A DNA stretch of 24,000 bases from Lactococcus garvieae (GTDB lineage Bacteria; Bacillota; Bacilli; Lactobacillales; Streptococcaceae): the NCBI RefSeq assembly GCF_016027715.1, contig NZ_CP065691.1, positions 753,954-777,953 on the forward strand, given 5' to 3'. This document shows positions 18,332 to 21,739 of the stretch, one piece after another. Within the stretch, counting starts at the first letter, position 1; each line of letters opens with the position of its first letter. Both the position numbers and the translations under genes were made by a program. The notes under the pieces were generated by a model. It saw only the letters and a list, made by a program, of their open reading frames with translations. It was not told the origin of the DNA and ran no database searches.

Positions 18332-19960
18332 TTAAGGATTACGGATGATGAGGGCTGGACGGACACCCCCACTAGCAAAGCTAGTAGGCACAACAAAATT
18401 GCCACCCAAGCGGCCATTGGTATGCACACACCAAGCAAAACCTGAAGCACCAGGGGTACGAAGCCACCACCAGCCTAGAGCAGCGGAACCACGCTGTGCA
18501 TGGTAAGGAAAAGCTAAATCTTCCCCGGATAAGCGGGTCACGTCCGCAAGAGAAAGGGCAAAGGCGCGTGCGGTTCCGCTTGGATCAACTTGCGTGATAT
18601 CATTCGCTACTGTGCCTATTAAGTTTGTAGGAAGCCATCTGTTACCACCTGTAAAACTCACTGCAGCATCCGCAACTTCCCCTGTCGTAAAGCTATTGGC
18701 GACAGGCTGAACTATGGCTTGGACGGCACTGCCAAGAGTGCTATACCAAGTGGCAAGTTCTGCTTCTTGGTCGTTCCAAGACACATTACGGATGGCATTG
18801 TTACGGATAATCATGTGATTGCCATCGCCCATATTTTCAAGGTAACGGTATTGTTCCCCTGACATAGTAAAGATTCGACCCGGATACATCGCTCCAAAGT
18901 TAAAGTCTGATGGTGGAGAATCCACATCGGCATCAGGGTTTGTTCCTTGGTCCCCATCATCCATGGCATTGTTACGAATACCTGTGAGGAAGTCCGCTAA
19001 GCGGTCATGCCCATCAGGCAGGAAGTCGTCACTGTTGTCAGGACTGACCAGTCCACTCTCCACATGGATACCATAGTAGTAAGAGCCATTGAAAACCGTA
19101 TCTTCGATAGCCGCCGTCATCTCTGCCGCATCCAGCAGGTAAGAAGTTGCTTCGCCCGGTTCTAGGAGTGAGGCCCAGTAAGCCCAGCCTGTTTGGTGAT
19201 CTACCACCCAGAAGTCACCGATCTGTTGGTAAGGTTGGAGTTGCGCCCACTGCTCGATGGTCATTGGGGCACGTTGTTGGTGGAGGTTTTGTGCCGCATC
19301 ATTGGTGATGGCTTCGCCCGGCCAAGTTGGGGTACTGTTGTCAAAGCTGTCACCCTCCGACCAGTAATCGTCAGTCCCATCCCCGGGGTGCGTAGCGCCA
19401 TCGGTCGTGCCGTCTGTTGCTCCACCTCCTGCGATATAGTCCCGGGCATGACCTGCGGCTGCCGTCATCTGATCCATGTTGTCATGGTTGAAAGTTGGCA
19501 TGTACCACGGGGCATCTCGTCCTTCACGACTCCAGCCAAAAGTCAGGTGGGCATAGCGGTCAAAAGCATTGGACGGGTCGGTGTTCAGTCGGTCATTGAT
19601 ATTGGTGGCATTGGGCATCCATGTGGTCCAAGAGTCCAAGTTGGTACGCTCTGTGCCTGGCACAAGTTGTGTCCAGCTGTCTTGACCTGTTTGTCGGGTT
19701 TCTAAAAACTCCGACAAGCGGATACGAGCCATGATGGGACGTTCGCCGTAGTTTTCGACAAAGACATCTTTGTTTTCAGTGTCGCGGTTATAGTAGTCGT
19801 GCACACGGCCACCCACGTTAATCTCGATTTGGTTTTCTCGGTCATTGATGGCCCGCTGGTTAAAGGCGGTGAAGGCATAAGTGCCTCCGATGAGGAGCAA
19901 TAAGAGGGAGAGAAGGACGTAGTTGCGTAATCTCCGGTTCTTTTTCTTTTCTGGTGTCAT
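18332..19960 (-). CDS. Exported or membrane-anchored protein of unknown function with a DUF6273-like C-terminal domain
   Basis: ATG 19960 has SD GAAAGGG 7 nt upstream; the track start 20005 is a TTG with no SD. N-terminus is a basic n-region plus Leu-rich h-region (KKKNRRLRNYVLLSLLLLLIGGTYAFTAF). The C-terminus (...ARAFALSLADV...WWWLRTPG...GGVRPALIIRNP) matches my recollection of DUF6273. Confidence 0.7.
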   Translation of the reverse strand: MTPEKKKNRRLRNYVLLSLLLLLIGGTYAFTAFNQRAINDRENQIEINVGGRVHDYYNRDTENKDVFVENYGERPIMARIRLSEFLETRQTGQDSWTQLVPGTERTNLDSWTTWMPNATNINDRLNTDPSNAFDRYAHLTFGWSREGRDAPWYMPTFNHDNMDQMTAAAGHARDYIAGGGATDGTTDGATHPGDGTDDYWSEGDSFDNSTPTWPGEAITNDAAQNLHQQRAPMTIEQWAQLQPYQQIGDFWVVDHQTGWAYWASLLEPGEATSYLLDAAEMTAAIEDTVFNGSYYYGIHVESGLVSPDNSDDFLPDGHDRLADFLTGIRNNAMDDGDQGTNPDADVDSPPSDFNFGAMYPGRIFTMSGEQYRYLENMGDGNHMIIRNNAIRNVSWNDQEAELATWYSTLGSAVQAIVQPVANSFTTGEVADAAVSFTGGNRWLPTNLIGTVANDITQVDPSGTARAFALSLADVTRLSGEDLAFPYHAQRGSAALGWWWLRTPGASGFAWCVHTNGRLGGNFVVPTSFASGGVRPALIIRNP

Positions 19961-20032
19961 AGTGATACCCTTTCTTGTTTTATCTTTTTTATCTTTTGAC
20001 TTCAAACTTTCGTGTCCTTAGGGCGGGCCACG

Positions 20033-20059
20033 AAAAAAGCGCTCCAGAGATCCCGAGCG
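20033..20059 (-). terminator. Terminator-like hairpin inside the leader of the island gene (possible attenuator or sRNA 3' end)
   Basis: Minus strand reads CGCTC-GGGATCTCTG-GAGCG-C-TTTTTT. The 5-bp GC-rich stem and U6 tract lie about 75 nt upstream of ATG 19960 and about 80-105 nt downstream of the predicted promoter. Confidence 0.4.
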
Positions 20060-20093
20060 TTTGGGTGCAAGTAAAAGGCGGGTGTCTACCGCT

Positions 20094-20140
20094 TGTGCTG
20101 TGCTGTGCTGTGCTGTGCTGTGCTGTGCTGTGCTGTGCTG
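20094..20140. repeat. Pentanucleotide microsatellite (TGTGC)9 plus TG; reads (GCACA)n / CAGCA repeats on the minus strand
   Basis: Nine perfect tandem copies counted base by base from 20094 to 20138, followed by a partial TG. Confidence 0.95.
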
Positions 20141-20144
20141 GCCG

Positions 20145-20173
20145 ATTATAAGTCATCACTTTCACCCCGTCAA
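20145..20173 (-). promoter_or_regulatory. Near-consensus sigma-A promoter facing the pentanucleotide tract and island gene
   Basis: Minus strand has TTGACG (20173-20168), exactly 17 nt of spacer (20167-20151), then TATAAT (20150-20145). The predicted +1 falls at about 20136-20139, the first repeat units. Confidence 0.55.
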
Positions 20174-20356
20174 ATCATTTAAAATAAACTAAGAATCTCT
20201 CTCATAATATTTTAACATTTATTTCTTATAAGTTAAAATGATTTCAATAAAGTTACGAATAAGTCTCTTATGTACCCAGTTTGAAAAAACTTCCGTAAAG
20301 AGTAAAACACAGGCTGAAACAAAAAGCTCCCTTCTCCTTTTATATAAAATATGAAG

Positions 20357-20393: not shown

Positions 20394-20425
<32 letters not shown>

Positions 20426-20458: not shown

Positions 20459-21739
20459 TCAGTTATAGAAGAAACGTATAAGGATACCACCCATGATAAG
20501 TACGATAGCACCACAGAGTCGGTTTGCCATCTGAGCAAAAGCAATCATCTCCATACGATCAGAAGCTGAGAGCACAGCGATATTTCCTGTTCCACCCATA
20601 GAGTTGTTAATCATCCCAGTACCAATCGCTGTTTCGACGGGATACATGCCAAGAAAGAGTCCGAGGAACCAGCTCGCCAAGCCCATCGCCACTACACTGG
20701 TTAGGCAGAGTACGATGAATTGCCAGGTTAAGGCAGAGCCGAGTGTAGTCAGATCAATCAAAGCTAAACCTATACCAGCCAAGACAGCATGAGTAAGGTT
20801 CGTCATAATGATTTGGTTGAACATGACAACAGATTCTTCTAAAGCTTTAGGAACTGCATCAAAAGCTTTGAGTACAAAAACGATGATAATCATAAAGGCA
20901 TATTCATGAATATTCGGGAAGAACTTGTTCAAAATAACACCCACCATCAGCAGAGAGAAAGCATAAAGCATCCCAACACCGATTTTTGTTGCATCAAATT
21001 CAATTTTTGGTTTTGCGAGTTCTTCTTTTGTCGCTGAGACTAAAGTTCCGTGTCCGTTGTATTTTGATTTTGCAAAGATTTTAGAAATAGACAGTGCGCC
21101 GATAATCGCAATAATATTCCCAAAAGTTACGGCGGGAGCAAGTTGAGAGAAAATCGCGGTTTGATTGCCGTTAGCAAGGCCATCAGCATAGATTTGGGAA
21201 AGCGGAGTAATCCCTGCTCCCATACCACCTGACATCATCGGCATTGAAACATACATGACGGAGTCAGCAAAGCCCTTGCCCAGCAACATACCCATACCAC
21301 CAACAGCGAAGAAGCCCACGACCATTGTGACTAAAGCTACAGGGATAAATTTAGCAGATGCTTTAACGAGTAGACTTCTGTTCATACCCAAGATTGAACC
21401 ACAGATGAGTGCTGCAATATAGAAGTCAAGGAAGCCGAACTGTCCACCCATAAACTTCCCTACTGCAGTGATAACATCAGAGGGGATAACATGGAAGAAC
21501 GACAAGAGCGTTGCACCTATCAGTGTAAAGACAGAGCCACCACCCAGGTAAGAGTTCATGATTGGTAACTTCTCACCGATGAAGTAAAGAAGATGTCCCA
21601 ACAATACAAGCAAGAGGGTAATCCCAACCATGTTGAGCGGGAGTTTCCCAAGAGCTATGGTCGCTGCTAATACAATCATGAAAAAAGCATAGAGTGGAAG
21701 ACTTATTCCTGAAATTTTTATTTCTTTTAATTTTTTCAT
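20459..21739 (-). CDS. mleP: Malate permease, 2-hydroxycarboxylate transporter (2-HCT) family
   Basis: 426-aa polytopic membrane protein of 2-HCT size and pattern (MleP/CitP-like). It starts 17 nt downstream of the malolactic enzyme gene. Confidence 0.8.
   Translation of the reverse strand: MKKLKEIKISGISLPLYAFFMIVLAATIALGKLPLNMVGITLLLVLLGHLLYFIGEKLPIMNSYLGGGSVFTLIGATLLSFFHVIPSDVITAVGKFMGGQFGFLDFYIAALICGSILGMNRSLLVKASAKFIPVALVTMVVGFFAVGGMGMLLGKGFADSVMYVSMPMMSGGMGAGITPLSQIYADGLANGNQTAIFSQLAPAVTFGNIIAIIGALSISKIFAKSKYNGHGTLVSATKEELAKPKIEFDATKIGVGMLYAFSLLMVGVILNKFFPNIHEYAFMIIIVFVLKAFDAVPKALEESVVMFNQIIMTNLTHAVLAGIGLALIDLTTLGSALTWQFIVLCLTSVVAMGLASWFLGLFLGMYPVETAIGTGMINNSMGGTGNIAVLSASDRMEMIAFAQMANRLCGAIVLIMGGILIRFFYN

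Follow-up and report, generated by a model that had tools for sequence, protein, structure and literature searches.

The 24,000-nt stretch of Lactococcus garvieae DNA analysed here (the window) carries, on its minus strand at 18332..19960, a gene for a 542-aa protein that is predicted to be exported and to be the product controlled by the upstream elements described below. The N-terminus comprises a basic and a hydrophobic segment, forming a putative signal or anchor sequence, and the C-terminus matches the Pfam family DUF6273 (E=1.4e-5), for which a C-type-lectin-like fold has been modelled in those phage receptor-binding proteins that serve as DGR targets (PMC10743442). A match of the protein to TIGR04090 (SipW-dependent matrix protein) was weak and sub-threshold. 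The AlphaFold model was confident for residues ~340-542 only, with pLDDT values of 82-97 in the C-terminal domain (AF2), and a Foldseek comparison of this model with the PDB returned nothing significant, with weak Mtd-like matches. No reverse transcriptase or DGR was present within the window, leaving the action of a DGR on the DUF6273 domain unsupported. An antisense ORF of 170 aa also lies within the G+C-rich gene (19193-19705, plus strand) and is probably a by-product of composition.

A dispersed gene family with a shared upstream cassette

Our homology search retrieved 408 relatives of the protein, all belonging to the L. garvieae group and the best 120 of them at 62-91% identity; those with a species name belonged to Lactococcus garvieae, ileimucosae, muris and formosensis and to one uncultured Lactococcus. 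Scanning of genome contigs yielded one locus, an L. petauri relative at 48% identity. Five relatives (P0033, P0067, P0076, P0082, P0116) were encoded on a single contig of 2,050,570 bp, giving at least five paralogues per chromosome, and single metagenome samples held 6-7 family loci each. The N-terminal two thirds of the proteins are conserved, and the last ~150 residues, corresponding to the DUF6273 region (alignment columns about 400-599), are hypervariable between paralogues. G+C content was 0.48-0.56 in the family, which is G+C-rich in all copies, compared with about 0.36-0.44 in the flanks. An earlier note on this DNA had read the gene as an island gene for a foreign protein; the several distinct paralogues per chromosome, all of them G+C-rich and with a variable C-terminus, indicate instead that it does not stand alone but is a member of a resident, dispersed and diversifying multigene family.

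The similarity among paralogues extends upstream of the gene. A blastn comparison of the window with a paralogue at another locus (L007, beside cutC) gave 90-93% identity over 20257..18344 and none outside, delimiting a conserved cassette (18344..20257, minus strand) that is common to paralogues elsewhere on the chromosome and comprises two predicted promoters (P1 and P2), a short leader and the gene. Its upstream part, ~300 nt long, is carried by each paralogue. A second perfect microsatellite, (ATT)10 at 20396-20425 or (AAT)10 on the minus strand, was observed outside this cassette, between the stop of a gene for an mleP-like 2-hydroxycarboxylate transporter (20459-21739) and the terminator of that gene (20390-20364); it occurred in 0 of the 94 fetched loci.

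Predicted promoters, leader and terminator around the pentanucleotide tract

Between the promoters and the gene lies a pentanucleotide tract (20094..20140), identified by Tandem Repeats Finder with a period of 5, 9.4 copies of the unit TGTGC, 100% matches and 0 indels, and reading as (CAGCA)9+CA on the minus strand. A 15-nt probe, (CAGCA)3, had seven overlapping matches, every one within the tract, where shuffles would be expected to give 0.01; a pattern scan of viral contigs gave no match. The gene begins 133 nt downstream of the tract, at ATG 19960, and is preceded at 7 nt by its own ribosome-binding site (19968..19975, minus strand; AGAAAGGG). The positions stated in the earlier note all proved correct.

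The promoter scan found again the minus-strand pair TTGACG (20173-20168) and TATAAT (20150-20145), here called P2 (20145..20173), with 11/12 consensus matches, a spacer of 17 nt and 4 bases (20144-20141) between the -10 hexamer and the tract. In an alignment of 26 upstream regions, CTTGA and TATAAT were invariant and their spacing fixed in all lineages, and because the whole family shares this arrangement, P2 is probably a real promoter. A second predicted promoter, P1 (20209..20236, minus strand), lies ~65 nt upstream within the cassette common to the paralogues and consists of TTAACT-16-TGtTAAAAT, an extended -10 form with 9/12 matches together with the TG. P1 was also conserved in the alignment of 26 regions; at the same position, L008 has TTGAAA-16-TACAAT (10/12) and L022 has TTGACA-16-TGnTAGAAT (11/12). 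Its predicted start, near 20202, is upstream of the leader ORF.

In promoter-spacer switches of the porA/opc/hif type, the repeat is situated between the -35 and -10 hexamers and copy number alters their spacing. Such a switch was ruled out here, since the tract starts 4 nt past the -10 of P2 and ~70 nt past that of P1, and the spacers of the two promoters are fixed at 16-17 nt; the earlier note had already pointed out that copy number would leave the -35/-10 spacing unchanged.

The tract is enclosed in a short ORF with its own predicted translation start. A Shine-Dalgarno-like GGGGTG (20163..20168, minus strand) stands 6-8 nt before an ATG at 20156, just upstream of a leader ORF (19989..20156, minus strand) that contains the whole tract and encodes 55 aa plus stop at n=9 units, translating as MTYNRP(AQHST)n. 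In the window, with n=9, this predicted ORF runs through the tract, a first hairpin and the predicted terminator. The ATG, located 3 nt before TATAAT, was invariant in 26 distinct upstream sequences from ~9 lineages in which the adjacent bases vary, and a G-rich G(A/G)GG motif was kept at a fixed distance from it, as GAGG or AAGGAG in other lineages (AAGGAG-5 nt-ATG in L054). Elsewhere, gene callers annotate this ORF as a hypothetical protein of 45-92 aa, the length of which tracks repeat number and frame; public gene calls of this kind were found at L003 1310-1456, L006 1-147, L084 712-849, L085 594-863, L092 668-853 and L097 531-749. One long open frame through the leader is, by our estimate, fairly often expected by chance, and the absence of stops from the repeat units was uninformative as evidence, given that 67-77% of pentamers and 14 of the 15 single-step neighbours of CAGCA are also stop-free.

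Past the tract, folding placed a first hairpin at 20078..20092 (minus strand), GCGG-TAGACAC-CCGC, followed by a T-rich stretch; it was scored terminator-like in L008 and L022. The loop of this hairpin holds TAG 20088-20086, the stop of the reading frame designated OFF below. This TAG was kept in all long-leader lineages, and in L053, L038 and L061 it is replaced by TAA, so that the codon changed and the stop was kept. One frame stops (TAG or TAA) no more than ~14 nt past the tract in every long, terminator-bearing leader lineage and also in L001, L075, L079 and L053. A predicted intrinsic terminator, T2 (20033..20059, minus strand), CGCTC-GGGATCTCTG-GAGCG-C-TTTTTT, folded with a dG of -10.8 kcal/mol, and a stem-loop with a T5-6 tail was found in all long-leader lineages (dG -9 to -15 kcal/mol). 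T2 in the window is modest, having a 5-bp core, a 10-nt loop and a C ahead of the T-run; a promoter and terminator scan of the window did not call it, and covariation was thin, with one of the five core pairs showing a compensatory change, from U-A to C-G. A short deletion ~40 nt past the tract takes out the 5' arm of T2 in L012, L050 and L051, where the residual fold amounts to -3 to -4.5 kcal/mol.

The leader as a whole folded no more stably than shuffled sequence (z = -0.18 and +1.09), leading us to reject a riboswitch-like structured leader, and Rfam covariance models at gathering score had no match in the whole window. Rho-dependent polarity on the C-rich leader was set aside since Streptococcaceae are not known to possess Rho. 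Just upstream of the gene RBS, the window has an A-rich short tandem repeat (19973-19997; period 9, 2.7 copies), and the region matching it in L027 consists of three copies of a 15-nt unit (GAAGTAAAGATAAAA) and a fourth degenerate copy. Taken together, these two arrangements indicate that a second, smaller length-variable element is located between terminator and RBS.

The module is not complete throughout the family. Short-leader lineages (L001, L053-57; ~3 units) have no terminator, so a mechanism that relies on it would not be universal; as judged from these lineages, both promoters and the small ORF are older than the terminator and the expansion of the tract. In a tract-less subfamily at ~40% identity (L065-L067), a P1-like element (ATTATTTTGAAT...) is followed directly by GAGGAG and the gene ATG, which suggests that the leader-tract-terminator module came to lie between P1 and the gene either through insertion or because the translation start was duplicated.

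Variation of the tract among relatives

Tract length was compared across isolates and samples, and the range of 2 to 39 units refers to homologous cassettes and paralogue loci other than the window's own mleP|gene|dnaD locus, with unit counts given where both flanks were assembled. This comparison of copy number among strains had been proposed in the earlier note, together with the view that the tract is prone to slippage and a candidate for variation, and this view is supported: unit number differed among loci with a 100% identical protein and near-identical flanks. Loci with the identical protein P0113 had 4, 5, 15 and 24 units, and the same chromosomal locus with a different allele of the protein (P0087) had 18 in two isolates. 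Identical P0091 proteins were preceded by 7 and 26 units (and by 2 on a possibly chimeric contig), and isolates with identical P0110 by 14, 10 and at least 31. Paralogues P0004 and P0001 had 27 and 17 units, P0116 had 39 in the complete genome CP141707.1, and L050 and L051, representing the same locus, had 8+3 and 12+3. The L. petauri-type lineage was constant at 3 units, and L001, L075 and L079 likewise had only ~3, with no variation. Between-assembly differences at long tracts could partly be assembly error.

The position of the tract was as consistent as its length was variable. All members at least 43% identical to the window protein and with the upstream region assembled had P2 and then, 0-5 nt on, a period-5 tract (L024 and L023 were left unscored in this survey), and subfamilies at 34-40% identity had no tract. 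The unit itself differed by lineage, being CAGCA, CAACA, CAGCC, GCAGA or a mixture, with GCAGA in basal lineages, and both the period of 5 and the position were kept in ~9 lineages. Such changes of unit at a constant period and position, in combination with variable copy number, are the mark of a tract that mutates by strand slippage and is selected to remain a repeat, whatever its unit.

These data bear directly on the possibility that the tract is a neutral, hypervariable microsatellite carried along in a conserved upstream cassette, gene expression being independent of n. The lineages L001, L075 and L079, which keep ~3 units without variation, and the sharing of n=18 by two isolates would be consistent with neutrality. 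Against this, the period-5 tract has held the same position in ~9 lineages despite four changes of unit sequence, a conserved start stands on one side of it and a conserved stop, followed by the terminator, on the other, and a system of the same layout has been proven experimentally (PMC3894217). On this evidence we regard neutrality as very unlikely.

Two further observations concern the assemblies themselves. Some 20 contigs from drafts or metagenomes break off within the tract (L005, L006, L010, L027, L030-32, L038, L040, L041, L043, L044, L046, L061, L082, L086, L087, L089, L093, L094 and L098), making it a systematic assembly breakpoint, for which the multiplicity of the cassette, the length of the tracts or the two together are responsible, and these ends are not evidence of heterogeneity within samples. 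In L084, the same 551-aa gene (P0091) as in L083 and L085 is preceded by 2 units and by the upstream flank of another paralogue's locus, with an ABC2 membrane gene where LMWPc would be expected; this represents either recombination between cassettes or a chimeric metagenome assembly at the shared repeat.

A candidate leader-peptide attenuator and its alternatives

The arrangement described above recalls the pil1 and pil3 loci of Streptococcus gallolyticus, where a promoter precedes a leader ORF that has an RBS and an ATG to itself (Danne, Dubrac, Trieu-Cuot, Dramsi 2014, PLoS Pathog; PMC3894217). The GCAGA repeats in that leader number 22 in pil1 and 13 in pil3, and a stem-loop terminator carrying six T lies beyond it (PMC3894217). 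With 22+3n repeats, translation of the leader ends 39-49 nt short of the terminator and expression is low, as it is with stops at least 28 nt upstream of the terminator; in the other frames, the stop falls at or beyond the terminator, ribosomes block the hairpin and expression is high (PMC3894217). The mechanism was proven with ATG, three-stop and terminator-deletion mutants (PMC3894217).

Our comparison of the L. garvieae cassette with pil1 concerns the layout as read from the sequence. In both systems, a pentanucleotide repeat of strain-dependent copy number is situated wholly in a short leader ORF with RBS and ATG, one frame stops well before a stem-loop with a T-run (low) and the others stop within or beyond it (high), the levels of expression being a prediction in Lactococcus, and the controlled product is exported or surface-located. 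The hosts of both are Streptococcaceae, and the GCAGA unit of S. gallolyticus also occurs in the basal lineages of the Lactococcus family. The architecture, called unusual in the earlier note, has a precedent in the S. gallolyticus layout (PMC3894217). There are differences as well: the main unit here is CAGCA (also CAACA and CAGCC), the product is a single DUF6273 lectin-like exported protein as opposed to a sortase-pilus operon, and in the L. garvieae group the cassette is multiplied over at least five paralogues per genome. Moreover, the leader RBS and ATG are overlapped by P2, a second promoter close to consensus, two terminator-like hairpins stand in tandem with the OFF stop in the loop of the first, and the terminators are weaker (-9 to -15 kcal/mol versus -18.7 and -28.2 in S. 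gallolyticus).

The best explanation of these features, which we hold with moderate confidence, is that a phase-variable leader-peptide attenuator of the pil1 type is present, with the tract as its mutable element. Transcription from P1 would yield an mRNA whose first frame, beginning with the RBS and ATG 20156, crosses the stop-free (CAGCA)n, and gain or loss of 5-bp units through slipped-strand mispairing would shift the frame in which ribosomes exit the tract. With n = 2 mod 3, ribosomes would halt at TAG 20088-20086, 26 nt ahead of the terminator stem, allowing the terminator at 20059-20033 to form, with little read-through to the gene (OFF or low). With n = 0 or 1 mod 3, which includes the window at n=9, the ribosome would cross the terminator and block the hairpin, and RNA polymerase would proceed into the gene for the 542-aa exported lectin-like protein (ON or high). 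Since each of the several paralogues per genome has its own tract, expression across the family would be combinatorial and stochastic.

The anatomy of the cassette, its conservation, the variation of copy number between strains and the dependence of stop positions on frame are direct observations. In a simulation of the window sequence from n=5 to n=13, the stop for n = 1 mod 3 was TAA (20018..20020, minus strand), 13 nt beyond the T-run, and that for n = 0 mod 3 fell 41-42 nt beyond the T-run and 31 nt before the gene ATG; n=8 and 11 are thus predicted to be OFF and n=9, 10 and 12 to be ON. Among 29 complete terminator-bearing loci, 10 were of the OFF type, with the stop 24-31 nt before the stem, and 19 of the ON type, with the stop within or beyond the terminator. 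Isolates with identical proteins differed in predicted state, as in L091 (n=14, OFF) and L092 (n=10, ON). By analogy with the proven pil1/pil3 system, we infer that the leader is translated, that P1 is used, that T2 terminates transcription and that expression of the gene is affected. The deletions of the T2 arm in L012, L050 and L051 may be naturally occurring alleles that are locked ON, comparable to the terminator deletion constructed in pil1.

These results divide the proposal of a phase- or rheostat-variable switch made in the earlier note. Comparison of the sequences strongly supports a switch that works by slippage; the rheostat, acting by length, is not, because P1, the RBS with ATG, the post-tract stop and the terminator together predict a three-phase leader-peptide switch that depends on n mod 3. 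The mode of action envisaged there, a change of leader length or start-site context, overlooks these four conserved elements and is probably wrong in detail.

A rheostat would nevertheless have parallels. Repeats with graded effects, and with no leader ORF or terminator logic, are known from Moraxella catarrhalis uspA2 (AGAT), Haemophilus influenzae hmw1A/hmw2A (7-bp repeats; hmw has two promoters) and group B Streptococcus bca (AGATT), and they share with our cassette a strain-variable repeat that separates the start codon of a surface-protein gene from its promoter(s); they differ in that the conserved start, stop and terminator found here predict period-3 behaviour. Such a rheostat would work from P2, with transcription starting ~7 nt past TATAAT, in the first unit, and an untranslated (CAGCA)n whose length would set, in a graded way, how stable the mRNA is, how efficiently it is terminated or how well it is translated. 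The strength of P2 (11/12) and its invariance in all lineages, the ordinary ~60-nt leader that short-leader lineages would obtain from it and the predicted lack of structure in the tract would all be consistent with this reading. It leaves unexplained, however, the invariant ATG and RBS in the P2 spacer, the conserved post-tract stop and the constant 24-31 nt from there to the terminator. In addition, a P2 transcript would have no start codon before the two terminator-like hairpins and would be terminated whatever the value of n, and its first 15 or more bases would be identical for any n of at least 3. We therefore consider a P2-driven length effect unlikely.

P2 raises a related question for the attenuator itself. 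The P2 -10 is downstream of the leader ATG in all lineages, so transcripts from P2 would miss the leader start; they would begin in the tract, with no start codon, and then meet two terminator-like hairpins. Part or most of transcription may therefore bypass the proposed mechanism. P2 may provide a short RNA or a low, constant level of read-through; otherwise it would be the main promoter, and the leader ORF would matter less than its conservation suggests. One way of combining the two promoters, which strikes us as rather improbable, would be a dual-output cassette in which P1 transcripts are gated by n mod 3 and P2 constitutively produces an abundant (CAGCA)n small RNA. The P2 RNA, devoid of the upstream ORF, would end at hairpins 1 and 2, its length and number of motifs following the tract, and might have a function in trans, such as the titration of an RNA-binding protein with a preference for triplets spaced by 5 nt. 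If so, the 5-7 or more cassettes per genome would couple an opa-like, combinatorial repertoire of lectin-like proteins to a variable pool of small RNAs.

A remaining alternative, that P2, tract and hairpins 1 and 2 simply form a trans-acting CA-rich small RNA of about 5n+35 to 5n+65 nt, for instance a sponge for a protein reading NAG/NAA triplets spaced by 5 nt, with the gene reached through read-through only, would accord with the strong conserved promoter, the unstructured repeat, the two terminator-like hairpins with T-runs and units readable as (C/G)A(G/A)+2 nt, which we presume to resemble TRAP-type sites, but it appears most improbable, as no Rfam family matches, the leader folds no more stably than shuffled sequence (z = -0.18 and +1.09), the analysis yielded no candidate for the binding protein and the conserved ATG/RBS and stop have no place in it.

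Returning to the attenuator, its multiplication over paralogues invites comparison with the opa genes of Neisseria, the pentameric repeats of which are also cited in the S. gallolyticus study (PMC3894217). Both systems would use a pentamer to switch among three phases, in independently switching paralogues that encode variable exported proteins. They differ in where the repeat acts: it lies within the structural ORF of opa and frameshifts the protein, whereas here stops in all frames separate the tract from the gene ATG. Frameshifting of the structural gene was accordingly rejected for our cassette, with stops in all three frames before ATG 19960 and the main frame closed by TAA 20020-20018. 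In opa, the repeat is a CTCTT pentamer in the coding region for the signal peptide of a multigene family. Repeat-driven phase variation in general is well documented in Gram-negative pathogens and rare in Gram-positives.

Our full-text literature search gave no paper in which L. garvieae was connected with phase variation, with pentanucleotide repeats or with this gene family, and in the literature searched, pil1/pil3 of S. gallolyticus was the only experimental example of a pil1-type leader-peptide and terminator mechanism. The cassette would thus represent a known type of mechanism, placed, as the analogy makes fairly probable, in front of a paralogous family of variable lectin-like exported proteins. 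If this is true, the Streptococcaceae would possess in this mechanism a regulatory cassette that can be reused, and it would account for the breaks of draft assemblies at the tracts as well as for the annotated 45-92-aa 'hypothetical proteins'; clones with n=8 versus n=9 or 10 would offer an immediately testable contrast. Variable ligand-binding proteins would then be expressed in a stochastic and combinatorial manner in L. garvieae, L. petauri and L. formosensis, three emerging pathogens of fish with zoonotic potential, and this would have a bearing on vaccine antigens, strain typing and interaction with the host.
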